Source of the DNA: a virus
DNA length: 64,000 nucleotides
Reading direction: 5' to 3' (one strand)
Virus record (IMG/VR): IMGVR_UViG_3300045412_000547
In this document: positions 8,589-63,654 of the stretch, piece by piece
Layout of the letters: every line of letters starts with the position of its first letter
Numbering within the stretch: position 1 is the first letter of the stretch
Translations under genes and position numbers: made by a program
Notes under the pieces: generated by a model
Database searches by the model: none
What the model was told of the DNA's origin: nothing
The model's input: the letters and a program-made list of their open reading frames with translations, nothing else

Positions 8589-8606
8589 TTATGGAAAGGT
8601 TAGATA

Positions 8607-9449: not shown

Positions 9450-10438
9450 AATATGCATTAGTATGTGGCGCAGGTGGTTTTATTGGAAACCATTTAGTAA
9501 ATAAATTAAAAGATCTTGGTTACTGGGTAAGAGGAGTAGATTTAAAATCTCCAGAATTTAGCAGTACAAATGCAGATGATTTTATTGTAGGTGATTTACG
9601 AGACAGACAAATAGTAAAAGATAGTTTATATGTATTGAAAGATAGCAATACAAACAGTAAAGAAATTTATGTAGATGAAATATATCAATTAGCTGCTGAT
9701 ATGGGCGGAGCAGGATATATTTTTACTGGTGATCATGATGCCGATGTAATGCATAATTCTGCATCGATTAATTTAAATGTTGTTGATCTGGCTACTAAAT
9801 TTAAAGTTAAAAAATTATTTTACAGTAGTAGTGCATGCATGTATCCGGAGCATAATCAATTGGACCCTGATAACCCAAATTGTGAAGAAAGCTCTGCATA
9901 CCCAGCTAATCCAGACAGCGAATACGGTTGGGAGAAATTATTTAGTGAACGTTTATATTTAGCTTATAAGCGAAATTATGGGTTAAACGTAAAGATTGCT
10001 CGTTTTCATAATATTTTTGGCCCGCTCGGCTCATGGAATAACGGAAAAGAGAAAGCTCCCGCTGCTATTTGTAGAAAAGTGGCCCAAGCAGTTGACGGGG
10101 GCGAAATTGAGATTTGGGGAGACGGTAATCAAACGAGAAGCTTTTTGTATGTTGATGAATGTTTAGATGGGATTATTAAATTAATGGAATCTAATTTTGA
10201 AGGCCCTGTAAATATAGGATCTGAAGAAAAAGTTTCTATTAATCAATTAGTAAATATTGTTTCTAAAATAGCAGGTAAAACTTTAATTAAAAAGCATATT
10301 AAAGGGCCTACAGGAGTAAGAGGTAGAAATTCAGATAATAAACTGATTAAAGAAAAAGTTGGATGGGCACCATCTCAACCTCTAGAAGTAGGCCTTAGTA
10401 AAACGTATGCTTGGATCAATAAAATGATATATGTATGA
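9446..10438 (+). CDS. GDP-mannose 3',5'-epimerase-like SDR
   Basis: GAGGFIG, QLAADMGGAGYI, YSSSACMYP, YGWEK, RFHNIFGP, EKAPAAICRK, GVRGRNSDN. Confidence 0.85.
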   Translation: MKYALVCGAGGFIGNHLVNKLKDLGYWVRGVDLKSPEFSSTNADDFIVGDLRDRQIVKDSLYVLKDSNTNSKEIYVDEIYQLAADMGGAGYIFTGDHDADVMHNSASINLNVVDLATKFKVKKLFYSSSACMYPEHNQLDPDNPNCEESSAYPANPDSEYGWEKLFSERLYLAYKRNYGLNVKIARFHNIFGPLGSWNNGKEKAPAAICRKVAQAVDGGEIEIWGDGNQTRSFLYVDECLDGIIKLMESNFEGPVNIGSEEKVSINQLVNIVSKIAGKTLIKKHIKGPTGVRGRNSDNKLIKEKVGWAPSQPLEVGLSKTYAWINKMIYV

Positions 10439-10492
10439 CTATTATTGAACTTATTTTTTTTATTGCAGTTCTTGCTTACCTTATTAAAATAA

Positions 10493-11095
10493 TTGGAGAA
10501 CATTAATGTGATTTCTGAAGACATTAAAATTTATGACGGTAGTTTAATTCACAGTCGCTTTGCTTATAAATTCTTCAAAGAACGTACATTACCTATTGGA
10601 AATATTCTAGCGTTTCGTGCGCCTATGAAAGTTGAAGCAGAAGGAATGATTGATACTGAGGACGTTTTAAATAATGATTTTATTTATAGTGAAGATGCTA
10701 TTAATTTTGTTTGGGAAATACCATATTTAGATCCTTTTGGCGCGGTTGCCTGGCAAAGACTGTTTAATACGCAGGTAGCAAATATTTTAAGTACTTCTTA
10801 CCTTAAGGCCCCTATTACTGTAGACGGAGACGATATGATCGTTCAGAAAGAGCATACTCAAGGCGGTGTCACCCAAACTAGTGGTAAATGCAGTGTGAGT
10901 ATAACTTATGTAAAGAACGGAACTGCGCTAGGTCATACAGGTATTAATATTAAAGCCGGTAAAAAAGCTCCTGCATTTGCTTTTTCTACTAATTTAGATG
11001 ATACCCAGGCTATCGGGCTTATGCAGGATGCAATAAAGCTTTTTTATACTTTAAACGATGATATTTTTATCGCTACTACTAAAGTTATCACTTGA
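10493..11095 (+). CDS. DUF366-like protein (LplA/BirA-like ligase fold)
   Basis: YDGSLIH, AFRAPMKV, MIDTED, QRLF, GDDM, KCSVSI, HTGINI match my recollection of DUF366. Confidence 0.65.
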   Translation: MENINVISEDIKIYDGSLIHSRFAYKFFKERTLPIGNILAFRAPMKVEAEGMIDTEDVLNNDFIYSEDAINFVWEIPYLDPFGAVAWQRLFNTQVANILSTSYLKAPITVDGDDMIVQKEHTQGGVTQTSGKCSVSITYVKNGTALGHTGINIKAGKKAPAFAFSTNLDDTQAIGLMQDAIKLFYTLNDDIFIATTKVIT

Positions 11096-12640: not shown

Positions 12641-14272
12641 GTGCTGAGTAGATATTTAGGTCACTTCCCAAAAGAATACAACCCTAGTTCCCAGCAAGTA
12701 AAATTAATTAAAGGTGTTGAGAGAGCGTTTAATAATAGTAAAAAATTTGTTGTTTGTAGTGCTCCAACGGGGTCGGGTAAAAGTTTTTTAGCTAAAACAT
12801 TATCCGGATTAAGTCAAAAACCTTCTACAGAATTTAAAAATTTAATTACTTCATATAAGGCTTATAAGCAAGATTACGTGGGTAATTATAATCATGAAGT
12901 AGAATGCTTATCGGAACCCCCATTCGGGACATTTGCTTTAACTATAACGAAATCACTTCAAGATCAGTATTTAAAATTATTTCCTGATACCGACTTATTA
13001 AAAGGCAAAACTAACTATGCCTGCAATGTAGATACAAGATTCGATGTTGAAACCGCCCCTTGTGTGTTTTTACCAAAGCTGAGGGACGATTGTTGGGAGA
13101 AAAACTTTTGTGCTTACTATACACAAAGAAACAAATCATTACTTTCCCAATTTTCAGTTTTAAACTATAAAATGTTTTTAAGTCTACCAAACCATGTGAA
13201 GCGGAAAAACTTTATTATTTGTGACGAAGCATCGGAATTAGAAGATGAGCTTGTTAAGAGATTTTCTGCAGAAATTATATATGATAAATTAAGAAATTAT
13301 GGTATAGAGTATAAGCCTATTATATCAGAAAACCGTGAAAGAGCGTTTAGCTGGACTAACGATTTAATTTTAACATTAAGCGAAAAAATAAATACACTCA
13401 TAGTAAAAGCATCTAAGAAAGAAGGAGCTTTATCACAGCCTGATCGCATAAAGCTTTTATATTTAAAAAATATTCACCGCTCGTTACTCACCGTAAATGC
13501 AAATTGGAGAGAAAGCGAATACATTGTCGATTTTGATGCAAAAAAAGTTTCATTTTTACCATTACGCGTAAATAGACTTTCCAAACATATCTTCGATTAT
13601 GCTGATAATATTTTGCTTATGTCTGCTACTATTATTGATCATAAAAATTTTGCACGGAGTCTAGGAATAGAAGATTATACGTATGTTGAGGTTGATAGTG
13701 ATTTTGATTCGCAAAAATCTCCTATATATGTAACATCAAAAAATAAGCTTAACTATAAAAATATAAAAAATGTTTTACCTGTTATTTGTGATCAAATAAA
13801 GTCTATTGTCAATCATCATATCACAGAAAAAGGAATTATACATACCCATTCTAATGAAATTACCGAAACATTAAAAACAAAACTTAAAGATAATTGCCGG
13901 TTTTTATTTCGCGATGATCTTACCAATAATGAAGAAATTTTAAAAGAGCATTTTGAATCGCATTTACCAACAATTTTAGTAAGCCCTTCTTTAGCATATG
14001 GTATAGATTTAAAAGACGACTTAGCGCGGTTTCAAATTATAGTAAAATTACCATATCCACCTTTATCATCTAAAAGAATTAAAAAACTTTTTGATTTAGA
14101 TAAAGATTGGTATGAAAATAAAATGCTAAATGCACTAGTACAGGCTTGCGGGCGTGCAACAAGAAGTAAGCAAGATTTTTCAACTACATACATACTGGAT
14201 GGTAATATTTTTAATACACTTAAACGCGTAAAAGTCAAACTTCCGAAATATTTTATAGATAGAATTTGTTAA
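12641..14272 (+). CDS. DinG/Rad3-like SF2 helicase
   Basis: APTGSGKS, KSLQDQY, KGKTNYAC with further Cys (FeS-like), DEAS, MSAT, GIDL, QACGRATRSKQD. Confidence 0.85.
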   Translation: MLSRYLGHFPKEYNPSSQQVKLIKGVERAFNNSKKFVVCSAPTGSGKSFLAKTLSGLSQKPSTEFKNLITSYKAYKQDYVGNYNHEVECLSEPPFGTFALTITKSLQDQYLKLFPDTDLLKGKTNYACNVDTRFDVETAPCVFLPKLRDDCWEKNFCAYYTQRNKSLLSQFSVLNYKMFLSLPNHVKRKNFIICDEASELEDELVKRFSAEIIYDKLRNYGIEYKPIISENRERAFSWTNDLILTLSEKINTLIVKASKKEGALSQPDRIKLLYLKNIHRSLLTVNANWRESEYIVDFDAKKVSFLPLRVNRLSKHIFDYADNILLMSATIIDHKNFARSLGIEDYTYVEVDSDFDSQKSPIYVTSKNKLNYKNIKNVLPVICDQIKSIVNHHITEKGIIHTHSNEITETLKTKLKDNCRFLFRDDLTNNEEILKEHFESHLPTILVSPSLAYGIDLKDDLARFQIIVKLPYPPLSSKRIKKLFDLDKDWYENKMLNALVQACGRATRSKQDFSTTYILDGNIFNTLKRVKVKLPKYFIDRIC

Positions 14273-18455: not shown

Positions 18456-19127
18456 ATGGCTTTTAGACTACTTGTAGAAACACCAGCTCCGGACGAGCAA
18501 TTTGAGTATATTGTTGAGGAAAAGAACCCTAAAGAACCATCTAAATTGTATATTTCTGGGCCTTACATGATGTGTGAAACTATTAATAAAAATCTGCGTA
18601 AATATAGTAAAGATGACATGACGCGGGAAGTTAATCGTTATGTTAAGGAAATGGTTGAACCTAAAAGGGCCATGGGTGAATTAAATCACCCTACATCTGC
18701 AGAAGTAAATTTAGAACGCGCTTGTCATATGGTTACAGAACTTAAAATGCAAGACAATTTTGTATTTGGAAAATCCCAAGTACTTTCTACTCCAATGGGA
18801 TTATTAGTTCGTTCTCTTATTAATGATGGTGCAAGAGTTGGCATGTCTAGCCGTGCCTTGGGTAAGCTTGTAGAGGAAAAAAATGGAATTAATCTTGTTC
18901 AAGATATGAGATTAATTGCTATAGATTGTGTTGCTGATCCGTCGTGTCCTAAAGCTTTTGTTAATGGTATTTTAGAAAGCAAAGAATTTGTTTTAAAAGC
19001 TGACGGTAGCTTAGAAGAGTTTTATGGTAAGTTTGAGCAAGCAGTTTCAAATTTACCCAAAAAAGAAGTTGCCCACTATTTAAAGGAACAAATTATGTCT
19101 TTCTTTAAATCTCTTGGAAATCATTAA
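18456..19127 (+). CDS. gp21: Prohead core protease
   Basis: NKNLRKY, GELNHP, GMSSRALG, DCVADPS. Confidence 0.93.
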   Translation: MAFRLLVETPAPDEQFEYIVEEKNPKEPSKLYISGPYMMCETINKNLRKYSKDDMTREVNRYVKEMVEPKRAMGELNHPTSAEVNLERACHMVTELKMQDNFVFGKSQVLSTPMGLLVRSLINDGARVGMSSRALGKLVEEKNGINLVQDMRLIAIDCVADPSCPKAFVNGILESKEFVLKADGSLEEFYGKFEQAVSNLPKKEVAHYLKEQIMSFFKSLGNH

Positions 19128-37080: not shown

Positions 37081-38712
37081 TTAACTTACAGACCAGCCTT
37101 TATTTGTAGCAATGTTTTTGTTGCTTGCATCATATCCAGGATTTCCTGAAACTAAAAGTTGCTTTGCATTGTTTCCATATGAAGCACCAGAATATAAGGA
37201 TGTGTATAATACATTTAAGGCATTTGCATCCATATTTTGATTTCGTAAATCAACGTAAAAATAACTTGTCATTCCTGTAAAGTCTGCCCCCACAATTCTA
37301 TTTTGACTTACTCCATTGAAATCCATGGTTTTTATTAAAGTATCTGCCCTAAATCTAACCCAACGCCCAGACCCTAAAGGAATAATCCCACCATAATCAT
37401 GATAAACGTTCCATAAATTAAAATAATAGGTCCCCGCACCACAGCACCTTCTAGTGTACCCATTCCAGTTATTGTTCATCGTGATCCAATCAGTAGCTTG
37501 GCTTTCGGAGCCAATTCTTGGAGTTGTAACAATTCCCATTACTCGACGGGTATTTGTATTTCCTGCACTACTGGTAAAATTATAATATATATAGTACCAA
37601 TAATCTGGAGGAGGGGGAGCAGATGTACGGGTAGGGGTGTTTGATTGTGTTAAAGTAGTAGTTGTTGTTGGAGTTTGTGTGTTAGAAAGTGTAACTGTTG
37701 TACTTGGAGTAGGCGTCTGTGTCTGGGTATTCGATAAAGTAACCGTGGTGCTGGGGGTTTGTGTCTGGGTATTCGATAAAGTAACCGTGGTAGTGGGTGT
37801 TTGCGTTTGAGTTTTTGTTTGCGTAGGTGTTTGTGTTTGCGTGGGTGTTTTTGTTTGCGTGTTAGAAGGTGTGGACGTTGTTGTCAAGGTAGTGGTAGAA
37901 GTGTTAGTGGGCGTGATGGTGGGAGCAGGAGTAGCCGTATTAGTAGGCGTTTTTGTTTGTGTGGGGGTTTGAGTGTTTGAAGAAGTGGCCGTGGGAACGG
38001 GAGTACGGGTAGGTGTAGGTGTTTGCGTGGTAGTAGAATTAGGAGTAACGCCTGCCGTGGAGGTATGGGTAGGTGTGAAAGAGGGAGTAGCTGTGGCTGT
38101 AGCATCGGGAGTTCGGGTCGGGGTACTCTGGGGTGTACCTGTGGGAGTAAGAGTAGATTGCGGCGTTGGAGTCAAGGTAACTGTGGGAGTACACGTCGGA
38201 GTCGATGCCGGTGTTGAAGTGGGGGTAGGACTAGGTTCAGGGTTTTCCAATAAGAAGTCTCCGAACGCTACCACCAGATAGGAACTTCCTGGCTCGAATG
38301 TTGTAAACGGAGAAGTAAAACCGAATTGATAGGATGCAAAACCTGTGCCTGACTTGTTAACAATTAATACACTTTCTAAATAATCCCTGTAAAGAGAAAA
38401 ATCTACAGGAATACTATACGGGTAGGTAAAAATATTATATCGGCGTTTAAATTGTATGAAAGGGGGTTTACCTAAATCGGGAAGAGACATTCCAAAATTA
38501 GGACCAGCCTTCTTCACAACAAGATAACCGGTGGCCGGTTGAAATTGTGTGATAGGAGAACTAAAACCGGGTTGGTAAACTTGAAACCCCGACTTACTGT
38601 TATTGATACCAGCTAAAAAGTCTACATAAACATCGTAGTCAACAAAAGGATAGGAAAACGGACTGTTAAATTGCAATAGGGTATATTTTTGTGTAAAATT
38701 TAATTGTCTCAC
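37081..38712 (-). CDS. Late protein with about 210-aa Thr/Pro mucin-like linker between two globular regions
   Basis: PTPTSTP/TQTPT repeats; duplicated N-terminal module ([10 protein letters not shown] / [10 protein letters not shown]); TAAATA 5 nt upstream. Confidence 0.75.
37680..37860. repeat. Coding tandem repeats ([12 protein letters not shown] and TQTKTPTQT units)
   Basis: TGTGTCTGGGTATTCGATAAAGTAACCGTGGT at about 37718 and 37760, degenerate third copy near 37680. Confidence 0.8.
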
Positions 38713-42672: not shown

Positions 42673-44304
42673 CTAATTTGCAGATCCCGGGGTTGCAGTG
42701 TAACCACCATATAGCATTGCATGACCTGAAATATCATTAGCCCACATAACTAAAGACATTGGATTAGAAGCATCGACTTCAGCCCAATCCTCACCACCCA
42801 CAGTATGATCCCAATTACAATATCCCATGCTAACAGGGAAAGGGCAAGGTACTGTTGTTTGTAATTGTTGTATGATAGGTATGTTGCACCCATGATAGCA
42901 TTTGTTCGGAGGCGGTCCCGGTTCACAACAAGGTCTTTGTTCACTATCTTCGTTACCTATTTGTTTCGTAAATGAATAACACTTACATATATTTTCGTAG
43001 TTTTCGATCTTGCTTTTCCAATTTTCTAGCCATGCCTTAAAAGTATCAACAAAGTTCTTTACATCTTTTTCAGTTGTAAGAAATAAATCATATATCTGCA
43101 GCCCAAAATTATCTAGATCTTCTACCCCTTGTTCAACTGCTTCTTTAGTCCAAAATTTCCTTGAATAACCTATAATATCTTCAAAAGTATTAGGAAAAGG
43201 GGTACCATGCGCACCAACAGCAGAATGTATCATGCTCCATATATCTCGTGCAGAATAAGGTTCCATATTTCCTTGTATAAATTCACAGGGTTTACCTAAA
43301 CAACTGCCGCATCCCCTCGCGCAGGAATCTTTAACAGAGTTTACAAACTCTTTAACCTTACATTTATATTTTGCTGTAAAAGCATCTACTAATGCTTCTA
43401 AAAGGCCTGTAGCTGGTGTATTAAGAAAATTATCAATAGTTTTCTTAAATTCATCTCTTATCCACATTTTTCCAATTTTTACTAATGAAAAACAAAACAA
43501 TTCCCCGGCTGGTAAGGCGCTCCAATTAGTATGTAATCTTTTTCCTTTTTCTGCTGCCCAAGAAGGAGTATTATTTAGTTTTTGCATATCTTCTTCATGC
43601 CACTTAATTCCTATTGCCATTTTTGAAGAAACAGTTGTTAAGCAAGCTATAGCTTCATTAAGAGCTTTTATGGTGCCGTTTTTATCTTCAATATAGCATC
43701 CTGTTTTTTCACAGGGCCCATCGTCACCGTAAGTAATAAAGCTCGCAGGGCATCTCCTAGGCTTTTTAATTCTATCAAATTCCGGCCATTTATTACCATC
43801 TAAGCAAGACCCGGATACAAGCCAAATATTTAAAGCAGATTCCATATCTTTCCATACCTTACTTGCTGCATTATAATCAGCAAGACCAGAGTTGCATAAA
43901 CAACCTTTATCGTCATCATTCTCAATGTCCTCCTCTAAAAGAGAAGGCACATAACAAAAAACGTTGCTTCCTATTTGGTTTGAAAGTTCAGGAAAAGTAT
44001 TGACCGCATGCACAAAAAAAGAATTGAATACAGCCAGTATACTACCTTCCGCGGCTGAAGATTGTCGGAATACTGAATAAAATGCAGTTCCGGCTAAAAA
44101 AAGAGCTCCTGCGGCGCTCTCCCAGAATGTTATAAACAAACCATCAAATAACGCTTTGGCTTGTGCTGCTAATTCATTACTAGGATCTGATACAGTGTTC
44201 CAAGCGGCAACAGGTAATGGCGGGCAATAACAGCAAGTACTTGTGCACTCGCTTGATGTAGGCCCATTCGGCCACTTTGGAGGAGGTGGTGTCGGTCTTG
44301 CCAT
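42673..44304 (-). CDS. Cysteine-rich late protein of unknown function
   Basis: About 26 Cys in 543 aa; TAAATA 5 nt upstream. Confidence 0.7.
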   Translation of the reverse strand: MARPTPPPPKWPNGPTSSECTSTCCYCPPLPVAAWNTVSDPSNELAAQAKALFDGLFITFWESAAGALFLAGTAFYSVFRQSSAAEGSILAVFNSFFVHAVNTFPELSNQIGSNVFCYVPSLLEEDIENDDDKGCLCNSGLADYNAASKVWKDMESALNIWLVSGSCLDGNKWPEFDRIKKPRRCPASFITYGDDGPCEKTGCYIEDKNGTIKALNEAIACLTTVSSKMAIGIKWHEEDMQKLNNTPSWAAEKGKRLHTNWSALPAGELFCFSLVKIGKMWIRDEFKKTIDNFLNTPATGLLEALVDAFTAKYKCKVKEFVNSVKDSCARGCGSCLGKPCEFIQGNMEPYSARDIWSMIHSAVGAHGTPFPNTFEDIIGYSRKFWTKEAVEQGVEDLDNFGLQIYDLFLTTEKDVKNFVDTFKAWLENWKSKIENYENICKCYSFTKQIGNEDSEQRPCCEPGPPPNKCYHGCNIPIIQQLQTTVPCPFPVSMGYCNWDHTVGGEDWAEVDASNPMSLVMWANDISGHAMLYGGYTATPGSAN

Positions 44305-45017: not shown

Positions 45018-48000
45018 TTATTCTGGATAAGTGGGTAGAGGTAGAGATGTTGCTTGCGGAATGCTAAATACTTTAGAATTAGTTCCAATTAAGGTTCTCG
45101 ACTTACGTCTTGAATGCATAATACTTAAAGTTCCATAAACATTAGATATATCATAAAAGACAAAATCATTACTATTGTCATAAGCTAATGCAGTTATATA
45201 GCTGCCGGAGTCTGTAATAAAGTAGCTATTATAGTTAAATATTTTTTTAGACAAAATATTTAAAGACGGAAAGCTGTCTCCATAAAAATAATAAAAATCT
45301 TGTGCACGAGCTGTACTTACATACATATATTTAGTATCAGCTAAAAATATATCTTCATCTTCAATGTATGAATTTTTATCTCTACCTATTTCTGGGTAAT
45401 GAAGAAGCTTATTACATTCAAATGTTATGTTATTGTTTTTGAAGACGGAAAGGGGAAGAAAAAAATTATCTAAATAACCGAGTGAAATATTATTAGAAAT
45501 ATGACTAAAAGAACTTAAGCCTATACTAACTGAAGACAAGCTATAATCGACAGATTGATCTAAATTAAAAATATTATTAGGATCAATAAATGTAAATACT
45601 ATTTTATTATTATCAATTTTAAATGAGCCTCCTGTGTTTCCTATTGTAACGTTTGCAGCACTAAGGGAAGAATTAAAACGTTGACCAGAAAGACCAGTAT
45701 ATATGTAAAGATCAAGGTTATTAACTTTAAGGAAGTTATATAATGAACCAGAAAACGGAATTATAAAAGTATCATCATATGTTAAATTTTCTTTATAAAT
45801 ATTTGTGTTATTTAACAAAGCAGAATAAAGATAAGGCACACTTCCTTTACTTAACACTAAAGACGTATCTACTGTTGGAATAAAAAGTGTACCTGGAGCG
45901 TTTCTTAAAGATTTTTTTAATTTTACATGGTTTACTTGATCATAGGTGTAAGAAGTGTAATAACTGCTTAGAGCGGGAGGTATTTTATTATTCCACCCAT
46001 CTTGAATCCAAGTATAATTTACTAAATATACATCACCGGTGTAACCAAGAGGGGATGTGTTAAGCATTAAAATGGTTGGTAAATTGTTATAGAAATTATC
46101 TTGTAGAGGTATAGCGGTGGTGGTATATACAAGACTATAATCAGGGCCGTTTCCTGGATTTGTAATACATGCATATACAGCAAATGAAAAAGGTGTTACT
46201 TTATTATTACTATCTTTTTTAATAAAAGTTTTTTCTAGAAAATCATATTCAACAACTGTGTTAAAAAGCCTTTTTGCAGATGAAAGACCATTACTATAGC
46301 TGATTGTATAATTTGAAGATAAAAACGAATAAGGCGAATTTGTAAGCTCAACAACGCCTGCACTGATATTTATAAATTGACTGCCAGAAACGGGTAGCGT
46401 AGAAACAGAATACCAGTATGAATTAATATTCCAACTAGTTGGTATAATTGTAAGAGTATACTGATAATAATATTCGTTTGTATATGTTTGTCCTGTTCCG
46501 GTAAGAGGATGATTAATACCCCATACAGGCATTTTATCGTAAAAAGGAGCACCTACAAAGTTATATTTTGGAACATCCATTTCAAAATAATATCTAAATT
46601 TTTCAGATTCTATGTTGAAAAATGAAGATAAGTTGAGAACATGAGCAGGAACAACTAGGGAAGTTAGAGCATGGACTCTACTAACTCCTTCCCCATATAT
46701 ATCTGACCATATAGTTGTATCTGCAGGAATATATGCTGGATATAATGAAGTCAAGATAGGTGAATGTGAATAAAAACTTGACGGTATATCAAAAATTGTT
46801 ATTATATTGTCCTGAAACTCTGGATCTAATTTCCAGATAGCAACATCACCATTAAAAGAGGAAAGATGTAATGGCTCATTCATAAAGCCGGTTAATGCCG
46901 CGAGATCTACATAAAGACCGCTTAATTCCTTTGCATAAGCATTATATGTACCAGTTAATTTTGCAAAAGCTGTCTTTACTATTTTTGAATTATATAAATC
47001 TTGTTGATTGTTATATGAATCTAAGTTTGTTTTTACTTGATATAAATCAATTATAATACCAGCACCTATATTGTTTTTATTATCAATAGAAAAACCATAA
47101 TTTCCAAGTGCACAGAGGACATTAAATAGCGTAATTGGATAAAATTTTTGCCCGTTATTTTTAAAATTTATGCATTTATATGCTATAGTAGTCCCCCCCG
47201 GGGACCAAGGATTTCCTCCCTCTAAGAACTGAGATCTAGGTATTTTAAGATTATTGATATTACTTGATAGTTGTGGATAATAATTTACAATAAAATATTC
47301 ACCGGGGTTAAAGTTGGCTGTAAGGGGTAAATTATATAAATTTAAATCAAAAATTGCAGATGTGGGAAATGCGGGATCTACTAATACGCCTGATAACTTT
47401 AGGGGTGACGAAAAATTATTTCCAAAATTTCTAAAATTATTTGCTAATACATTATTAAAAGTATCATTTGTATTAGGTATAAACGTAAAGTTATTTGTAT
47501 CTGGAATATAATTTACTAAGTTCTCAAACCCGGAAAGATGGGATAAATAAAATAAATCGTTTTTGTAAAAACCGGTATTTACAGGTATGACATTACTAGT
47601 TAATGAATTTAATAATGTTTTTATTCTTATAAATGAATCGTACTCACCAATATTTCTAAATAGCGTTGCAAAATCAAACGTTATTGGGCTGTAGGAAACA
47701 TATTTTGGTAAATATTGAAAATATGATTGATTATAAAAATCTGGATAAACTTTATCATTTTTATTATCATTGTATAGTAAATTAAATACATCTTCTTCCC
47801 TATCTACAAGGATGGATTGAAATGAAGTTATTCTGTAAGAGTACGGTGCTTTATTTACAGCATATCTTAAATTAATTGTAGAAAGAACTCTTGCGTAATC
47901 AGAGGTAAGATAGGATGTAGATGGTATTCCGGTAATTCCGTTTAAAATTGTTTTATTTGAAATAATACTTGTAAGATAACTATGTTTTTGACGATTGGTT

Positions 48001-48344
48001 GTTATTGAATTAAGATATTCGCTAAGACGAGTCCTGCTGCCGTCTTTAAGTGTTCCTATAATCTCGTAAAGGCCCCAACCGCTCAAATGCGGTGTTGATA
48101 CAAGTGGTGTAAATGTACCATTAACAGAAGAATCATATTCACCGCTTAGAGTTGGAAATAAAGAAAATTCAATTTTTTCCCAATTCAAATTATTCTGAGG
48201 AAAATCTTTATTTACAAATTTTAATTCACCGGGTATATAGTTATTCTGTAATCCAAGAATTAATTTTTTAAAATCATCTTGTGAAGGACGGTCCCCAGTC
48301 TTAAAATTAAACAAACTATTGTTAAAAAAATAATTAGTAGACAT
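45018..48344 (-). CDS. Large Asn/Ser/Tyr-rich putative virion/tail protein
   Basis: 1108 aa; N-terminal FKTGDRPSQDDFKKLI resembles tail-attachment motifs; recurring LSG/LSS/LTG. Confidence 0.6.
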   Translation of the reverse strand: MSTNYFFNNSLFNFKTGDRPSQDDFKKLILGLQNNYIPGELKFVNKDFPQNNLNWEKIEFSLFPTLSGEYDSSVNGTFTPLVSTPHLSGWGLYEIIGTLKDGSRTRLSEYLNSITTNRQKHSYLTSIISNKTILNGITGIPSTSYLTSDYARVLSTINLRYAVNKAPYSYRITSFQSILVDREEDVFNLLYNDNKNDKVYPDFYNQSYFQYLPKYVSYSPITFDFATLFRNIGEYDSFIRIKTLLNSLTSNVIPVNTGFYKNDLFYLSHLSGFENLVNYIPDTNNFTFIPNTNDTFNNVLANNFRNFGNNFSSPLKLSGVLVDPAFPTSAIFDLNLYNLPLTANFNPGEYFIVNYYPQLSSNINNLKIPRSQFLEGGNPWSPGGTTIAYKCINFKNNGQKFYPITLFNVLCALGNYGFSIDNKNNIGAGIIIDLYQVKTNLDSYNNQQDLYNSKIVKTAFAKLTGTYNAYAKELSGLYVDLAALTGFMNEPLHLSSFNGDVAIWKLDPEFQDNIITIFDIPSSFYSHSPILTSLYPAYIPADTTIWSDIYGEGVSRVHALTSLVVPAHVLNLSSFFNIESEKFRYYFEMDVPKYNFVGAPFYDKMPVWGINHPLTGTGQTYTNEYYYQYTLTIIPTSWNINSYWYSVSTLPVSGSQFINISAGVVELTNSPYSFLSSNYTISYSNGLSSAKRLFNTVVEYDFLEKTFIKKDSNNKVTPFSFAVYACITNPGNGPDYSLVYTTTAIPLQDNFYNNLPTILMLNTSPLGYTGDVYLVNYTWIQDGWNNKIPPALSSYYTSYTYDQVNHVKLKKSLRNAPGTLFIPTVDTSLVLSKGSVPYLYSALLNNTNIYKENLTYDDTFIIPFSGSLYNFLKVNNLDLYIYTGLSGQRFNSSLSAANVTIGNTGGSFKIDNNKIVFTFIDPNNIFNLDQSVDYSLSSVSIGLSSFSHISNNISLGYLDNFFLPLSVFKNNNITFECNKLLHYPEIGRDKNSYIEDEDIFLADTKYMYVSTARAQDFYYFYGDSFPSLNILSKKIFNYNSYFITDSGSYITALAYDNSNDFVFYDISNVYGTLSIMHSRRKSRTLIGTNSKVFSIPQATSLPLPTYPE

Positions 48345-49210: not shown

Positions 49211-49669
49211 TTAAAACGATGTGGAAAACAAAACTTTATCTACAAATTCTTTAGTTTTATTTTTACCGATAAGTGCCAGAGGGCGCCCAAGGTTTTAGGA
49301 TTTTGTCTTTGCTTTAATATATTATTAAAGTCTTTTGGTGGGCTTATAAAAATGAAGTCGGGTGAGAAAAAGTCGGCCCACTCGGGTAATGTCCTCTGAT
49401 ACTCCTTTAGCTCTTGGCACAACTGAGATAGATATATGTTTTTTTCCTTTGAATATGTTATGTCGCAAAATATGCCGGTAATATTGCCGTTGAGTGCTAT
49501 CAAATCGAAACCAAAAATGCCACATTCGTGAGAATAGTGAGGGTACGAAACGCAATGTATCACCGATATTCTTCTGTTTGAACTTTGAAAATATTCTAAG
49601 TATCCGTATATTATTTGACAATTTGCGAAAAACCAATTTTGCCAAACGTGCTTTCCTTGATACTATCAT
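49211..49669 (-). pseudogene. Frameshifted ferredoxin-dependent bilin reductase (PcyA/PcyX-like)
   Basis: IHCVSYP, IFGFDLIA, RTLPEWADFFS, QRQNPKT in one frame; the start ATG (49669) and the C-terminal IGKNKTKEFVDKVLF are out of frame with it. Confidence 0.7.
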
Positions 49670-49806: not shown

Positions 49807-49901
49807 TTACTCAAATTAAAAACTTTTTGTAATTATTTCTTTTTTTGTCAGATTTTTTATTAGTGTTTTCATATTTGCATCTTGATATATTAAATATTAA
49901 A

Positions 49902-50081
49902 GTGAAAAGTTTCAAGGTTTTTTATTTAGAAGAAAAAAGAAAAAAGCGGAAGAAAAAAAGAAAAAGAAAATCTTTCTTTCGTCCATATGGTTGGTGGGGA
50001 TGGGGTCCGGGTTATTACGGGGGGTTGCCCGGGGGAGGATATGACGGAGGATATGAGGGAGGCGATAGTGGGAGTGAGTAA
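49902..50081 (+). CDS. Small late protein: polybasic stretch plus Gly/Tyr/Trp tail
   Basis: TAAATA 5 nt before GTG; MKSFKVFYLEEKRKKRKKKRKRK... Confidence 0.65.
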   Translation: MKSFKVFYLEEKRKKRKKKRKRKSFFRPYGWWGWGPGYYGGLPGGGYDGGYEGGDSGSE

Positions 50082-50332
50082 TGTTATACAGAAAAAAGTA
50101 TTCTGATTGTAGGTTATTTTGGATTGTAAATCCAATAAATAACCATACCAAGGAATTATATCTAGTATGGCTTTTTGATAAGAATCGATTTGGGATACGC
50201 AAGTATTTTGTTTATAAAAATAATGCTAGAAAACCGCCCTTCACTGATATAATACGAATATATGATATTGATGAACGAGATCGTGTTAGATTTACGGAAG
50301 AAGGCATTTCAATAGCTGTCGAGACTAAATAA
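50081..50332 (+). CDS. MxY...FTxEG family protein
   Basis: MLY ... FTEEGI. Confidence 0.65.
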   Translation: MLYRKKYSDCRLFWIVNPINNHTKELYLVWLFDKNRFGIRKYFVYKNNARKPPFTDIIRIYDIDERDRVRFTEEGISIAVETK

Positions 50333-50410
50333 TTACATGGGCACGTTCAGTGTGTTTGAAATATTTTATTATGTTACCATTGCATTAGCTGTCTTCTACG
50401 GGCTAAGTTA

Positions 50411-50560
50411 ATGAGTGCATGGCTCATAGCTGTAGTCACTGTGCTATACGCCAGTATATCTATATCTTACTTAATAAAGGGCAATTTTGGTATGGCTTGG
50501 ATTTGGGGTGGTTATGCTTTTGCTAATGGCGGTTTTCTTTACTTAGAGCTTAATAAATAA
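50411..50560 (+). CDS. Small two-helix membrane protein (absent from the ORF track)
   Basis: Manual translation MSAWLIAVVTVLYASISISYLIKGNFGMAWIWGGYAFANGGFLYLELNK. Confidence 0.6.
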   Translation: MSAWLIAVVTVLYASISISYLIKGNFGMAWIWGGYAFANGGFLYLELNK

Positions 50561-50640
50561 TTGATTTATTTCATACGTACAAAGGAACCCCTTCTAAGAC
50601 TTTTAGGATACTTTCTTTGCAGAAAAGAAATTTTATTTAT

Positions 50641-51033
50641 TTAAAGACTTATTGCAAACCCCTCATAAGTAAAATTTTGTAAGATATCTTTTGTCATTCC
50701 TCGTTCTTTACAAAACTTTTTATAAATGACGTATTCGGATTTTTGATCTATGTTTAATTTAGATATATCCGGTCTGTGTCTAGGTTTATGAGCTTGTTCT
50801 ATAGACCAATAACGTATTTCATGGGCATGCTCGTAATATGTATAGTTTAAATTCAACTTGATGCAACCATCTGGATTCCTGCCTGAAAAAAACCCATCCC
50901 AATCCGCCATCGTGATATTATTAAAAATAACAAGCCCCGGAAACCATCCGCCCGGATTCCATCCGTTTGCATAACCTACCTCTACCAGATATGGCTTAGT
51001 TGCACCGTAACGATAGTATTTAATATACCTCAT
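50641..51033 (-). CDS. MxY...FTxEG family protein
   Basis: MRY ... FTYEGF. Confidence 0.65.
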   Translation of the reverse strand: MRYIKYYRYGATKPYLVEVGYANGWNPGGWFPGLVIFNNITMADWDGFFSGRNPDGCIKLNLNYTYYEHAHEIRYWSIEQAHKPRHRPDISKLNIDQKSEYVIYKKFCKERGMTKDILQNFTYEGFAISL

Positions 51034-51356
51034 TTTTTACTTCTAAAAAATAAGTTTGTCCTAACAATACTTTTGGGTATGCCTTCTTCACTAAAAAATT
51101 TTATCAAATCAAAAACATAATCATATGTTGTTTTATTTAGTACATCATTAAATAAAAAATTTTCATGATCGGAACGAGGACTTGTCCAGCCCTGGGAATA
51201 TGCATACCAAGGCAATTCATTATATTTGAGTTTTCTCTGAGAATCTAAATTTAATGGTACTTTGTAAATTCCAAAACAAGTAAACGCATCTCTTTTAGTT
51301 ACTACAAACTCATTATTGAGGTTATTAAGAGGTATTTTCTGAACTTGGTATTTCAT
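51030..51356 (-). CDS. MxY...FSxEG family protein
   Basis: MKY ... FSEEGIP. Confidence 0.65.
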   Translation of the reverse strand: MKYQVQKIPLNNLNNEFVVTKRDAFTCFGIYKVPLNLDSQRKLKYNELPWYAYSQGWTSPRSDHENFLFNDVLNKTTYDYVFDLIKFFSEEGIPKSIVRTNLFFRSKK

Positions 51357-51760
51357 ATACTAAGAGGTATTCCTTCCTGCGAAAAAGGACGTAAAGCATT
51401 TACACAAAAATAATTATAATAAACATTATAATAAGATTGAGAAACGTAGTTACCGTTTTCACTTTTCAATACATATCTTGTTTTCAATAGATTATATAAG
51501 GTATAATACTCAATTTCAAAATCATCATGTTTTTCTCCATAAAATTTGCCTTGCTTTAATTCATTTGCTGTAATGTTGTAAGGTACTATATTCCAGACTA
51601 CTTCACCGAATTTTTTTTCTGGTAACGTTTCTTTCGACTCTAAATCATAAGTACGAGCATTCTTTGAACAAAAAATGATACCTTGAAGACAATACTCTTG
51701 ACCGGAAAGATGATAGGTGATTGGAATATCTTTCATCAATAATAAATGTTGGTATCTCAT
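51353..51760 (-). CDS. MxY...FSxEG family protein
   Basis: MRY ... FSQEGIP. Confidence 0.65.
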   Translation of the reverse strand: MRYQHLLLMKDIPITYHLSGQEYCLQGIIFCSKNARTYDLESKETLPEKKFGEVVWNIVPYNITANELKQGKFYGEKHDDFEIEYYTLYNLLKTRYVLKSENGNYVSQSYYNVYYNYFCVNALRPFSQEGIPLSI

Positions 51761-52290
51761 GATACCTTACGTTTGAGATAAAATGAAAATCCTTCCATAC
51801 TATAATCTTCTAATGCTTTTGATAGATATAAGTTTGCATGGTTAAGAAAATAATGATTAATTCCAATGTCCAAATCGTTGTAGAGACTTATTCCTATGGA
51901 ATCAAAATTGATATCCATTGGCCCGTAATCGCCAAACTTACGATATAGACGCCACTTCACACAATTCTTCATTAAACTACCAAGGTTCTCTTCTCCACCG
52001 AGGAACTCTTTCGGTTTAAAAGGCTTATTTTGTTTTAAAGAATTTTTACGTTTGAGATAAGTCATACTCACTATTACAAATATTTTCCCGTAATTATATG
52101 CAGAAAAATTTATTGAATTATCTAAAAACCTTTTCTCTCTTTGAGGATTCCATATGTTTTCCGCATCTCGCTCTGCTTGGGCAGGTATTGTTTGTCCTGT
52201 TTGATTAAAAGGTAAATGCAAAGGCCTTTTAGGAACCAGGTAGTGCCAAAAAGTTTTATCTGTTAATCCAATATAATGACCGTAAATCAT
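51757..52290 (-). CDS. MxY...YSxEG family protein (start revised to MIYGHY)
   Basis: TAAATA 5 nt upstream of ATG 52290; YSMEGF. Confidence 0.65.
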   Translation of the reverse strand: MIYGHYIGLTDKTFWHYLVPKRPLHLPFNQTGQTIPAQAERDAENIWNPQREKRFLDNSINFSAYNYGKIFVIVSMTYLKRKNSLKQNKPFKPKEFLGGEENLGSLMKNCVKWRLYRKFGDYGPMDINFDSIGISLYNDLDIGINHYFLNHANLYLSKALEDYSMEGFSFYLKRKVS

Positions 52291-52353
52291 ACCAGTATTT
52301 ATATATAAAAATTTTTTAAGGGAAAAAACAATATATATATACATAGAGATTAT

Positions 52354-52695
52354 ATGTTATACGAAATATGTAGACGGTCGCTCCATGCAAAGAGGAAATT
52401 TGCACATTTGTTAGATGACAAATGGCATTGCAACCTTCGTGTCTATTGCCCGCCCTGGGGAAAGTATAGACGTATAGATTTTAACGAACAGCCTTTATTA
52501 TTTCCGTATATACCTTTAACCGGTGTTAATGTTAGAAAAAGCTTTATAAAACGGTACAAACTATCGTTTAATTATAACAGCACCGGCTTAGCCGCCACCG
52601 GCTATTATACCTCATACGAACCTATAAAATATATATATGCTCTGGTACAATACAGGTATACCATAGAGGGCTTCTTAAGGCATTATTATATATAA
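52354..52695 (+). CDS. MxY...YTxEG family protein
   Basis: MLY ... YTIEGF; close paralogue of 52818-53129. Confidence 0.65.
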   Translation: MLYEICRRSLHAKRKFAHLLDDKWHCNLRVYCPPWGKYRRIDFNEQPLLFPYIPLTGVNVRKSFIKRYKLSFNYNSTGLAATGYYTSYEPIKYIYALVQYRYTIEGFLRHYYI

Positions 52696-53218
52696 TTTTT
52701 TGTCACAAGACAGCGTGTTATACTTATAGGCCGAAGGCCAATTCGGCCAGAATATAAATATATCTGTATATAAATATATCTGTGCACTCAATGTTAGACA
52801 ATTTATAGCGGTATTATATGTTATACCAACTAATCTGGAATAATAAGTTACGAAGTCGAAAAGATGTCCAGATCGACGCACTGATCAAGGAGTTCAATGT
52901 GTACTGCCCCCGCCTGGAAAAGTATAAAGATTTTAAAAATGTTCTAGTATTGAGTTATGTACCTTTCACCAATGTCCTTCAAAGCTTTATGAAACGGTAC
53001 GAAATAAAACGTATAGAAGATACTTATCCATATTATTCCACACACATACCCATTGGGCTTGCATATTCTCGAAAAAGTAATGGTTACAAATTTACTATAG
53101 AGGGCTTCTTGATTGATGGATATATATAATTTTTTGTCACAAACAATCGTGTTATACTTATAGGCCGTAGGCCAATTCGGCCAGAATATAAATATATCTG
53201 TGCGTTACAATATTAGAC
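52687..53218 (+). repeat. Direct repeat of about 100 bp (copies near 52687-52809 and 53121-53218) with promoter motifs and a stem-loop
   Basis: TATATATAATTTTTTGTCACAA...GTGTTATACTTATAGGCCGwAGGCCAATTCGGCCAGAATATAAATATATCTGT in both copies. Confidence 0.9.
52818..53129 (+). CDS. MxY...FTxEG family protein
   Basis: MLY ... FTIEGF. Confidence 0.65.
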   Translation: MLYQLIWNNKLRSRKDVQIDALIKEFNVYCPRLEKYKDFKNVLVLSYVPFTNVLQSFMKRYEIKRIEDTYPYYSTHIPIGLAYSRKSNGYKFTIEGFLIDGYI

Positions 53219-53466
53219 GATTATCGAATTTGGGTCCGAAAAAGGGTCTTATTGAATTAATCGGCTATAAAATACATGATGCAGGTGTAGAAGATATAAA
53301 TAATATACACTTACGAGACCTAGTTTATTGGGTCTATGTTTATAGTAGTACCATGGAAGGCACAAATAGAGATAAACACCGTTATAAAGAAAAGAGTAAT
53401 AGGCATATGTCCCCTTATACATCATACACCGTGGAAGGTATTGTGTCTATGACATACATAAAATAA
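53200..53466 (+). CDS. MxY...YTxEG family protein
   Basis: MRY ... YTVEGI; TATAAATA 5 nt upstream. Confidence 0.65.
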   Translation: MRYNIRRLSNLGPKKGLIELIGYKIHDAGVEDINNIHLRDLVYWVYVYSSTMEGTNRDKHRYKEKSNRHMSPYTSYTVEGIVSMTYIK

Positions 53467-53786: not shown

Positions 53787-54704
53787 TTACTTGCCTTCCT
53801 GACGGACGGCTATATGCCAGATAGCCTCTCCTCCTCGGCCCTTCTTAATGACCAAACCTTCTGAGACAAGTTCACGTAAGAGATAGCCCAGACGAGTACT
53901 ATCCATCTTAAGCTTATCACAAGCTTGCTTCAGAGTAAGCTGCTTATTAGACTCTAACAACGATATTAGTTGTTTACGTTGCTCGATCTTTGGTTGTTTC
54001 TTTTTATTAATCTTCTGAGGTACGACCACTTCTGAATTAAAATCGTAACCTGCATACAACATCTGCGTCATCAGCTCGTGGGCAGGACCAAATCGATTCT
54101 TATCAAAATAGATTCGTCGCATATTAGCTTCTCCATCGCGTACTCCGCTGATGCCCATATTGACATCGACAGCATGGATTATAAGAGAAGAGCCTTTAAT
54201 GCCTCCTGCCTTGGTATGGTGACAGACCATAAAGATGGCACACTCCGTTTCCTTAGCTCGGACAACTAGCTTTTCGATTAGATACTTTTCGAGCTCTCGA
54301 TTACGCAGCTTACCAGCCGTTAGACCTTGGAAGGAATCGACAACAACGACATCGAGGTTATCCATCTGCTTGGATATGGTATCGACATCAGCCTCGTTAC
54401 AGACCATCAAGTCGGTGACGTCTAATCGCTTACAAGTAAGAGCTAGCTGGGCCACACTCTCTTCGGTAGAACAGTAACCGACTTTATAGCCGTTCTTGTG
54501 AAGGGCTTGGAGAAGCTGTAACATGAGAGTAGTCTTCCCCAGACCCGCTCGGGCAGTCAAGGTGATTGAACTACCTGGGAGTATACCACCCCCAAACGCA
54601 GCATCCACCTTCTCAATTCCCGTCTGCATCCTCCGATAGAAGACATCTGGTATGACCACATTCTTAACTTTAACAAATTTAGTAGGCTCTAATTTAACGT
54701 TCAT
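53787..54704 (-). CDS. radA: RadA/Sms-like ATPase with C-terminal wHTH, lacking Zn-finger and Lon-like domains
   Basis: TGIEKVD..FGGGILPGS, ARAGLGKTT, TEES, VVDSFQ, HAVD, KNRFG. Confidence 0.75.
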   Translation of the reverse strand: MNVKLEPTKFVKVKNVVIPDVFYRRMQTGIEKVDAAFGGGILPGSSITLTARAGLGKTTLMLQLLQALHKNGYKVGYCSTEESVAQLALTCKRLDVTDLMVCNEADVDTISKQMDNLDVVVVDSFQGLTAGKLRNRELEKYLIEKLVVRAKETECAIFMVCHHTKAGGIKGSSLIIHAVDVNMGISGVRDGEANMRRIYFDKNRFGPAHELMTQMLYAGYDFNSEVVVPQKINKKKQPKIEQRKQLISLLESNKQLTLKQACDKLKMDSTRLGYLLRELVSEGLVIKKGRGGEAIWHIAVRQEGK

Positions 54705-61182: not shown

Positions 61183-61656
61183 ATGAAATATTTTTTTCGA
61201 TTTGGTGAGTATATGCAACTAGATAGAGATAGATATGTATACTCTTGGATTGATGGAAAATGGCATCCCGGAAAGTTAAAATATAATGATAAATTTTTTG
61301 CTTATTTAGAGAATATTCCCCAATTTGTCAAATTATCATTTCTGAATTGTAACAAAAGAAGAGTATATTATTTTTTTAAAAACATCAGTGTGGAAGGAAT
61401 TATTCTACAGGAACCATACTTAGTAAGACGCAATACAAAACAGTTATATTATAAAGGTCGACCCGTGGATTTAGATTCTTTGGAATTGGATTGTTATGAA
61501 GGATCTTGTACTCCGAGAAAAAATGGTGTTTATTTAGACAACGGAGAAAATATGTTAGCCCATGAAATAGAAGACTTTTTAAATTATCTTCCTAAAGAAG
61601 ATTATGAAACTCTTGTTCAAGATATTTACGGTCATGATTCTTCCGCATATTTATAA
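61183..61656 (+). CDS. Possible MxY...SxEG family member with C-terminal extension
   Basis: MKY ... ISVEGI at mid-protein; TAAATA upstream. Confidence 0.55.
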   Translation: MKYFFRFGEYMQLDRDRYVYSWIDGKWHPGKLKYNDKFFAYLENIPQFVKLSFLNCNKRRVYYFFKNISVEGIILQEPYLVRRNTKQLYYKGRPVDLDSLELDCYEGSCTPRKNGVYLDNGENMLAHEIEDFLNYLPKEDYETLVQDIYGHDSSAYL

Positions 61657-62977: not shown

Positions 62978-63286
62978 CTATCTTCTGTAGGGCTGTCCTT
63001 CCATGGAAAATTCAGGAATAGCCATTCCGAGACTATCATAATCATGTTTCCATTCAGAAATAGGAAACACTGTGAAACCCGGTAATTCTTTTTTGAATTT
63101 AGACCAGCGAATGCCTAATTCTTCGGGGGATCTTCCTCCCATAAACTTTTTACCCATGTAGTTTAAAACTATTTTATTTAAATCTAAATTTGAGGGAACA
63201 TATATATACCCTTGTTCTTGAAACTCTCCTTCTTTCGAATAAAGGGCCATTTCTAAAAGGTCATTAACTTTCAGATCAAAATTCAT
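62978..63286 (-). CDS. Hypothetical protein, candidate internal head protein
   Basis: MNFDLKVNDLLE-MALY leader; ends FSMEGQP. Confidence 0.55.
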   Translation of the reverse strand: MNFDLKVNDLLEMALYSKEGEFQEQGYIYVPSNLDLNKIVLNYMGKKFMGGRSPEELGIRWSKFKKELPGFTVFPISEWKHDYDSLGMAIPEFSMEGQPYRR

Positions 63287-63288
63287 GA

Positions 63289-63654
63289 CTATCTATTTTT
63301 TACACAGTTATTAACTCTTTTTCCTCCCTTGAGTTTGGTGCCTTGTTTGTGATATCCTTTCCAACATTTTGGATCAAGTCTTCTCTCTTCATTTTCTTCT
63401 CTAGTTGTAGATTCTTCGCCCTCAGACATGCCTTGTGCAGAAAGAATATCATTAACATGGGCTGCTATGAAATCAACATCAGTAGGAGCTTTGCCTACCA
63501 TTCCCAAATATTTAGTAACATACATTTTTATATTTTGAATATTAAGATTGGGGGTGCCTCTTATTTTGTCAGCTATAATTTTAGCAGCTTGCTCATCGCT
63601 CACAGAGACTCTATTAGCAAAAGCCTCGTATATTAAATGATCGTCTTTTCTCAT
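63289..63654 (-). CDS. Late protein, candidate internal head protein (start revised to MRKDDHLIYE)
   Basis: TAAATA 5 nt upstream; C-terminal CWKGY..GTK.KGGKRVNNCVK mini-motif. Confidence 0.65.
   Translation of the reverse strand: MRKDDHLIYEAFANRVSVSDEQAAKIIADKIRGTPNLNIQNIKMYVTKYLGMVGKAPTDVDFIAAHVNDILSAQGMSEGEESTTREENEERRLDPKCWKGYHKQGTKLKGGKRVNNCVKNR

Follow-up and report, generated by a model that had tools for sequence, protein, structure and literature searches.

A tandem array of eight small genes lies at 50.08–53.47 kb in IMG/VR virus record IMGVR_UViG_3300045412_000547, of which a 64,000-nucleotide (nt) stretch was analysed (the window). The window derives from a T4-like myovirus of ~31% G+C and is part of a 172.5-kb metagenome contig from the Joint Genome Institute (JGI). 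The encoded proteins start with M-x-Y and end close to a [FY][ST]xEG[IF] motif, and the analysis confirms a genuine gene family in which two very short invariant terminal motifs surround fast-diverging middles. This tandem, late-type, fast-evolving family, with its gain and loss of cassettes, is real and unusual. In the best explanation, which is given a probability of about 0.5 as a whole, a recombining array would encode a single constant-ended domain that has a hypervariable middle and is made late. The eight members are listed here by coordinates, strand, length in amino acids (aa) and terminal sequences.

50081–50332 (+): o50081, 83 aa, MLY..FTEEGI+7; 25.9 bits with the family hidden Markov model (HMM)
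50641–51033 (−): o51033, 130 aa, MRY..FTYEGF+4; last gene of the minus-strand operon
51030–51356 (−): o51356, 108 aa, MKY..FSEEGI+15; overlaps each neighbour by 4 nt
51353–51760 (−): o51760, 135 aa, MRY..FSQEGI+4
51757–52290 (−): o52293, 177 aa, MIY..YSMEGF+9; first gene of the four-gene minus-strand operon
52354–52695 (+): o52354, 113 aa, MLY..YTIEGF+6
52818–53129 (+): o52818, 103 aa, MLY..FTIEGF+6; its subfamily weakly and locally resembles the Cys-bearing hairpin of unimodular QueF (residues ~17–56)
53200–53466 (+): o53200, 88 aa, GTG start, MRY..YTVEGI+7; the best-modelled member

Terminal motifs of the array proteins

An earlier note on the window had described eight clustered open reading frames (ORFs) on both strands with these starts and C-terminal hexamers, and all of them are present, at 83–177 aa. 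In a six-frame translation of the window, the regular expression [FY][ST].EG[IFV] returns exactly 8 matches, all in the array (50291–53442) and 4–15 residues from the stop. The motif stands far above chance: 200 block-wise shuffles average 0.3 matches and never exceed 4. More distant relatives, sampled over 252 kb, contain 2 matches. A start of the form M-x-Y is seen in 1 of 33 long window ORFs, compared to 8 of 8 array ORFs (M-[LRKI]-Y). The motif codons differ among members (AGT or TCG for Ser; ACG, ACT or ACC for Thr; GGC, GGG, GGA or GGT for Gly), and because this variation is synonymous, the motif is conserved at the protein level.

The middles, which the earlier note had judged mostly unalignable by eye, behave in this way in BLASTP as well: only o52354 and o52818 align over their full length (34% identity, E 4e-12), and o51356 and o51760 align over their last 37 aa (E 0.003). 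For a profile-profile comparison with hhalign, the first four residues and the region from the motif to the end were removed from seven clusters, and reversed sequences served as controls. The trimmed middles match with a probability of ≤8%, equal to the reversed controls, apart from one out-of-window pair at 67%. In the middles, the family alignment shows a W followed by x-[VIL]-Y; this pattern is weak and without statistical support. No hydrophobic segments are present in the window members, which are predicted to be soluble proteins. The pI (isoelectric point) exceeds 9 in six of the eight (that of o51033 is 8.98), and the Tyr content is 9.1% relative to a background of 5.0%.

The gene boundaries are also regular. 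The four minus-strand members overlap successively by 4 nt. The start of o52293 is the ATG at 52290, not 52344, as judged from a late-promoter box 5 nt upstream and from gene calls of 177 aa in relatives. A start of o53200 within the duplicated 5′ region was considered and rejected, based on the late box 5 nt upstream of the GTG and on orthologues that begin (GTG)-L-Y (locus L012) and MLY (L014).

Distribution and divergence of the family

The array occupies the junction between a fibre-like late block, which includes a 1108-aa protein (45018–48344), and an early block that opens with an AAA_25/KaiC-like ATPase (53787–54704) and a SprT-like protein. Related loci, 23 metagenomic and 3 from IMG/VR, were fetched by means of this neighbouring ATPase. 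Contigs from five other samples hold identical or 96–99.8% identical copies of the array genes. At loci with an ATPase identity of ≥84%, the array adjoins the ATPase and every member starts M-[LKRI]-Y. The array of L011 has 5 members, those of L013 and L014 have 8, and in that of L012 the motif rule recognises at least 14, besides 2 more with a relaxed second motif residue; L012 also contains one frameshifted family copy (8592–9004). Midway, the L012 array is interrupted by four small genes unrelated to the family (9654–10721, −). Loci with 59–68% ATPase identity have neither members nor analogous M-x-Y arrays in the fetched flanks.

Among the 34 non-redundant members, M1, Y3 and the Glu and Gly of the motif are 100% conserved, and residue 2 is always one of L, K, R and I. 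In 32 of the 34 the motif opens with F/Y followed by T/S. The residue after Gly is I, F or L, and the tail beyond the motif is 5–21 residues long with hydrophobic residues at alternating positions. The proteins span 78–177 aa and fall into 18 BLASTP clusters.

In four phage lineages, orthologues retain their reading frame and length together with the two motifs. Those of the window and of L011 or L012 are 42–62% identical, with 42% for o52293 and its L012 orthologue, compared to 90–91% for the adjacent ATPase. Between strain variants, o52818 and o53200 show synonymous changes only. The ratio of non-synonymous to synonymous rates (dN/dS) is 0.2–0.5 for o51760, o51356 and o52354 (small counts), and o50081 has 8 non-synonymous changes versus 1 synonymous change (small counts).

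A search of 1.84 billion representative proteins with the family profile gave 10 matches, all from the same contigs or close variants. When the array was compared by blastn to 50,697 phage records, nothing matched, and none of the IMG/VR scans, for which o52354, o51033 and the 1108-aa neighbour were the queries, gave a relative. In leave-one-cluster-out tests the profile scores are 6–30 bits, and because of these low values unknown clusters elsewhere would be missed. As far as is detectable at the sequence level, the family thus appears to be lineage-restricted.

Two further ORFs and one relic had been named as possible outliers in the earlier note. The ORF at 61183–61656 (+) does have an M-x-Y start and an I-S-x-E-G-I motif, at residues 68–73; membership in the family is unsupported by HMM or hhalign. 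It is orthologous (38% identity) to L013 1583–2125 (−), which shares the M-[KL]-Y start and the motif at 68–73. In both proteins the motif lies mid-protein, followed by a conserved C-terminal extension of 85–110 aa, and the pair could represent a fused form related to the array proteins. For the second ORF, at 62978, the family HMM gives no support. The relic, placed by the note at about 50572–50625, is plausible as a 3′ remnant with a frame of 21 codons (50571–50636, −).

Gain and loss of array members

The following parts of the locus bear on changes in array size.

50571–50636 (−): possible 3′ relic of a lost member; reads IKFLFCKESILKVLEGVPLYV and ends KVLEGVPLYV before the stop
52291–52353: divergent intergenic region that contains the late box of the minus-strand operon
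52651–52817 (+): repeated spacer unit, copy 1, with 3′ motif codons, TTTTTTGTCA, TGTTATACT, a GGCCGAA/TTCGGCC hairpin and two copies of TATAAATA
53085–53201 (+): repeated spacer unit, copy 2; TATAAATA ends 5 nt 5′ of the o53200 GTG

A 117-nt unit that follows o52354 is repeated after o52818 at 86% identity, compared to 34% protein identity for the coding bodies. Within this unit are the final codons of the motif and the stop, a T-run, the GGCCGAA/TTCGGCC hairpin and a late box; upstream of two L012 members, a comparable hairpin likewise occurs with a late box. The sequence ATTATATGTTATAC is common to gene starts. Two strain variants of the window phage (L008/L009 together with L006) have two extra members between o52293 and o52354. 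In these co-occurring strains, homology is lost at 52330, in the divergent spacer, and regained at 52352, at a conserved gene start. Unequal recombination between constant gene boundaries would be the simplest mechanism for this two-gene indel, and the 21-codon remnant after o51033 fits the loss of a member. A variable locus, copy numbers that change between strains, and fast-diverging middles between constant termini are in keeping with a diversifying library, a term that the earlier note had used.

The array was also considered as the target of a diversity-generating retroelement, and this candidate was rejected. A repeat search of 49.5–53.8 kb returned only the spacer and motif repeats and no template/variable repeat pair, and none of the neighbours scanned is a reverse transcriptase-like ORF.

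Late-type expression signals

Approximately 25 window genes, including those for the portal and prohead protease, are preceded by ATAAAT[AT] that ends 5–6 nt (range 3–9) before the start codon; examples are the genes at 15097, 18456, 19149, 22040, 37081 and 42673. In the early block (53.8–59.5 kb), no such arrangement of late box and start was found. Across the window, this spacing implies near-leaderless late mRNAs, as predicted from the promoter positions. In the array, a late-type box at 5–6 nt precedes o52293, the first of the four overlapping genes, where TATATAAATA sits 5 nt 5′ of the ATG, and it also precedes the GTG of o53200. Two TATAAATA boxes lie 45–60 nt upstream of o52818. In L012, a late box is found 5–7 nt before five members that are first in their unit. 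The box spacing matches that of the portal and prohead protease genes, and from the sequence the expression of the array is predicted to be most likely late and largely leaderless.

Structural models and homology searches

An AlphaFold2 model of o53200, built from a 35-row alignment, has a mean predicted local distance difference test score (pLDDT) of 77 and a predicted template modelling score (pTM) of 0.63. The model contains strands at residues 3–7, 16–20, 24–27 and 43–46, short helices at 49–64, and strands at 74–76 and 82–87, with the C-terminal motif spanning the turn of the last hairpin (74–87). Confidence is highest in the first and last ten-residue blocks (86 and 88). The model of o52818 is poor (pLDDT 55) with a similar order of elements, and it was left out of the fold search. 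Because both ends are modelled as strand or hairpin with the highest confidence, the o53200 model favours, on thin evidence, an assignment of the ends as structural strands of one small domain rather than as detachable tags.

Foldseek searches of PDB, BFVD and Atlas with the o53200 model gave no clear match (best TM-score by query, 0.41), and in a VIA wide search the best hits were type III secretion chaperones at a Z of 2.2, which is not significant. The co-fold of an o53200 homodimer scored 0.02; it gave no verdict and is not used as evidence either way. At the sequence level, searches of Pfam, PHROGs and NCBIfam with single members and with 33 members found no family except a sub-threshold match to QueF, and neither the family profile nor that of cluster 1 retrieved anything meaningful from PDB sequences. 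Whole-length alignment to one known family, which the earlier note had named as a result that would speak against its reading, is therefore not seen in Pfam, PHROG, NCBIfam or PDB. The Pfam scan of 33 members at E ≤0.1 gave no match to PF12699, and PHROGs gave no shared family. An ESM Atlas feature search with o52293 had no usable match.

A weakly QueF-like segment in one subfamily

QueF proteins carry two sequence motifs: FHEDC, in which the His-Glu pair anchors the substrate, and E(S/L)K(S/A)hK(L/Y)(Y/F/W), for NADPH. The o52818 subfamily has a collinear segment of ~36–44 residues that resembles the catalytic Cys/Asp hairpin of QueF. Against TIGR03139 (unimodular QueF), 3 of 33 members give sub-threshold matches, all in this subfamily, the best with 25 bits (E 1.3e-5) relative to a cut-off of 86.9 bits. 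In BLASTP, the member at L012 7183–7479 matches QueF of Streptococcus phage Dp-1 (E 7e-5) across a 32-residue stretch that surrounds the catalytic Cys, with the aligned pattern EFxxxCPxxG..DF..SY[IV]P....ES. In hhalign, the subfamily matches a profile of 42 unimodular QueFs with 51.5% probability (E 1.5e-4), compared to 0.2% for the reversed control, and three of its members rank 1–3 among 1178 real and shuffled sequences. Within cluster 1, all 6 sequences have C30, P31, D38 and F39, and in the alignment these residues fall on the Cys and Asp hairpin residues of Dp-1 QueF.

Members of the subfamily are 98–113 aa long versus ~165–175 aa for QueF. In the cluster-1 alignment with two QueFs, the His-Glu is absent, the FHE(D/A)C segment facing NYTTE/YYST, and of the second motif only S, K and Y persist. 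PF14489 (Pfam QueF) has no match among 33 members, and in hhalign the signal is absent from every other cluster and from the whole-family profile. The phage's own bimodular QueF and a bimodular C-module profile were considered as relatives and rejected, as neither gives a signal above shuffled sequences. The fold searches with the o53200 model, with a best Z of only 2.2, returned no T-fold proteins. At most one subfamily would contain a QueF-derived segment. This weak link to QueF in a guanine-modifying phage is a separate lead.

Proposed mechanism and alternatives

In the best explanation, the array would be a lineage-restricted, rapidly diversifying tandem family that encodes one small soluble domain of 80–180 aa, Tyr-rich and mostly basic. 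M-x-Y would begin the first β-strand, [FY][ST]xEG[IF] and its 5–21-residue tail would form the last β-hairpin, and the two ends together would provide a constant core or edge of the domain, not free tags. The middle, evolving too fast for alignment, would carry the specificity. Array size would change by unequal homologous recombination involving the conserved gene starts on one side and the 3′-motif-plus-spacer units on the other, and a T4-type late promoter 5–6 nt before the start codon would cause the proteins to be made late, alongside virion parts. The products could then serve as a binder repertoire in the host–phage arms race, acting on or in the virion (as an adaptor or a delivered protein) or late in the cell. 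As a tentative and rather unlikely elaboration, the members may be interchangeable small binders on one minimal scaffold, in which each member attaches by its first strand and last hairpin to one shared partner (a site on the virion, or a fellow member through pairing of edge strands), the middle recognises host targets, and recombination at the ends shuffles cassettes between co-circulating strains.

Several observations weigh against the single-domain explanation. The common fold is drawn from one medium-confidence and one poor model that derive from the same 33–35-sequence alignment, and lengths of 78–177 aa with unalignable middles would fit unrelated payloads between constant modules equally well. 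The dN/dS values between strains rest on few changes, and only that of o50081 exceeds 1. The possible relatives at 61183 and L013 1583–2125, whose membership is unsupported, have the EGI motif mid-protein. With respect to timing, o52354 is without a late box close to its start, and the spacer carries the extended −10-like TGTTATACT, from which early transcription of o52818 and o53200 is possible.

In the earlier note the termini were described as a constant docking or sorting element, a view that is possible but at present less well supported than that of a single domain. As a sorting or processing signal, the termini would direct unrelated payloads to the prohead or virion, where the gp21-like protease would cut [ST]-x-E↓G and from which the products would be delivered to the host, for example for counter-defence. 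Late-type promoters, conservation confined to the termini across unalignable middles, a size and basicity of most window members like those of the T4 internal proteins, and the resemblance of [ST]-x-E to giant-phage cleavage motifs with a small P3 residue are all consistent with this proposal. It is nonetheless judged rather improbable: no part of the model is structured with more confidence than the ends, which do not look like tails, the first 10 residues of the 34 members contain no conserved Glu (positions 4–10 are variable), and P3 is S/T and not the L/I of T4, with the scaffold protein of this phage full of [LI]xE sites. In addition, candidate leaders much more similar to the T4 capsid targeting sequence (CTS) are present on other late genes and not on the array proteins. 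These leaders, M[RK]KDDHL[IM][YF]EA, occur at 63289–63654 (−) in the window and at 410–739 (−), 2149–2847 (−) and 2–409 (−) in L013, on genes that have ATAAATA, 5 nt, then ATG and unrelated bodies of 109–232 aa, and which are candidate internal proteins with a T4-CTS-like leader and an (L/I)xE↓A site. The cleavage site of the major capsid protein (MCP) could not be placed; in BLAST the T4 gp23 cleavage site aligns to a Glu-free MCP stretch, and three upstream Glu sites are possible. The candidate WCFE↓A, as a mirror of the array motif, was set aside as unsupported. A decidedly unlikely alternative is a set of virion-surface adaptors or adhesins, whose constant end strands would dock on fibre proteins (the 1108-aa protein and partners) and whose variable Tyr-rich surfaces would give mixed receptor specificity. 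The position of the array, with the early module on one side and the fibre-like late one on the other, the shared orientation of its minus-strand operon and the fibre genes, and the presence of fibre-like genes directly at this junction in distant relatives point in this direction, as do the late promoters, the Tyr enrichment and the strain-level gain and loss of members. Yet the proteins are very small, no gp38-type adhesin and no family of fibres or chaperones resembles them, and family scans found no assignment for the 1108-aa protein.

It is hardly credible that the array is non-functional, that is, a set of decaying duplicated pseudogene-like ORFs in a hyperplastic region, whose motifs were kept by recent duplication or gene conversion. 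A truncated bilin-reductase remnant next door, the possible relic, the frameshifted L012 member and the paralogue pair that is more similar in its flanks (DNA) than in its bodies would suit such decay. However, the motifs are retained with different codons in clusters that lack DNA similarity, the eight frames are open and conserved among strains, some with synonymous-only changes, and 42–62% identical orthologues keep frame, length and motifs in four lineages. Finally, the family could represent degenerating or neofunctionalised copies of unimodular QueF (T-fold) that are tied to the 7-deazaguanine pathway and bind deazapurine bases or modified DNA, with the C-terminal motif as a remnant of the QueF F-T-P-R-G-G-I strand. 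The phage does encode QueF and other deazaguanine genes, and the sub-threshold TIGR03139 matches, the Dp-1 BLASTP alignment, the hhalign probability, the top ranks and the invariant Cys-Pro and Asp-Phe residues all agree with such an origin. This origin is very unlikely for the family as a whole, as the signal is found in only 1 of ~18 clusters at scores far under the cut-off, Pfam QueF is unmatched, the phage's own bimodular QueF is dissimilar, the FHE(D/A)C motif is missing, no T-fold emerged from the fold searches and the likeness of the C-terminal motif is one seen by eye alone.

Genes surrounding the array

Three small ORFs that are not members lie among the plus-strand genes at the left end of the array.

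49902–50081 (+): small ORF, GTG start, ~59 aa; its stop overlaps the o50081 start (TAATG)
50337–50560 (+): two hydrophobic ORFs of 24 aa and 49 aa, downstream of o50081

Behind its (M)KSFKVFYLEE start, a second candidate T4-CTS-like leader, the product of the small ORF has a stretch rich in K and R, KRKKRKKKRKRK, and then a tail rich in G, Y and W. No strain variant differs in this ORF. Its translation is coupled to that of o50081, and its GTG follows a TTAAATA variant of the late box (TAAATA at 49891–49896) by 5 nt. The 24-aa and 49-aa ORFs share the late unit of o50081; the 49-aa protein has two likely membrane spans, and its gene is called in relatives.

Beside the array, the frame at 49240–49563 (−) and an overlapping frame at 49325–49669 (−) form a truncated remnant of a ferredoxin-dependent bilin reductase (PF05996, E 2.8e-7, profile positions 64–149 of 228, slightly below the Pfam cut-off). 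The remnant has the appearance of an auxiliary metabolic gene in decay. Elsewhere in the window, the phage encodes a portal, a gp21-like prohead protease (18456–19127), a scaffold protein and a gp23-like MCP. The nearest relatives of its class Ia ribonucleotide reductase are in Pelagibacter phage HTVC008M and cyanophages, at ~50% identity. Three ORFs are exactly 543 aa long. That at 12641–14272 is a DNA helicase (phrog_2488), and those at 37081–38712 and 42673–44304 have late boxes and no family match.

Significance and comparison with known systems

Up to ~16 tandem genes in which only nine terminal residues are (near-)invariant, and whose orthologues diverge ~5 times faster than the neighbouring gene, set this family apart. 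Such fast divergence, together with changes in array size between co-sampled strains, is a pattern that usually marks direct host–phage conflict. If the constant ends are a docking or scaffold element, they would constitute a naturally minimal display scaffold and would open a route to recognising fast-evolving effectors that ordinary homology searches miss. If the repertoire proposal is correct, a T4-like phage would carry a germline-encoded library for host range or counter-defence. The reach of these suggestions is limited to one small freshwater-type metagenomic phage lineage, where the family has so far been seen.

To our knowledge, multigene families are uncommon in phages. The known examples, namely T-even internal proteins such as IPI, IPII, IPIII and those of the polymorphic IP locus, and giant-phage head paralogues, are delivered effectors or virion components. 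In T4, the CTS is an N-terminal 10-mer, MKTYQEFIAE, that ends in the (L/I)xE cleavage site; CTS signals are generally 10–15-mers, and the T4 internal protein IPI* acts against GmrSD. As a set, the T-even internal proteins are highly diverse and defence-related, with only the capsid targeting sequence in common (PMC3012670). The array proteins share with them small size, a mostly basic character, a predicted late production, a variable locus and a diverse set of sequences with a short common terminus. In contrast to the N-terminal CTS with its cleavage site, the array fixes only M-x-Y at the N-terminus, and its main motif sits at the C-terminus, in a part with predicted structure.

A second parallel is found in giant phages. 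Proteases of the gp21 type cut after Glu, with the motifs A-X-E in SPN3US and S-x-E in phiKZ, and SPN3US has a 20-member paralogous family of head proteins whose size varies between phages (PMC5694885). The array resembles SPN3US family B and the phiKZ PF12699 inner-body proteins in its tandem diverged paralogues, its variable number of members and the presence of a gp21-like, Glu-cutting protease. It differs in that Pfam scans of 33 members show no sequence relationship and in that the array proteins are much smaller.

The location of the array further recalls the hyperplastic regions of T4-like phages. These regions are usually mixtures of unrelated, mostly early ORFs. The array is similar in its position at a module junction, its variation among close strains and its small ORFs without database relatives. 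It is distinguished from them in that its ORFs belong to a single family, share invariant terminal motifs and have promoters of the late type.

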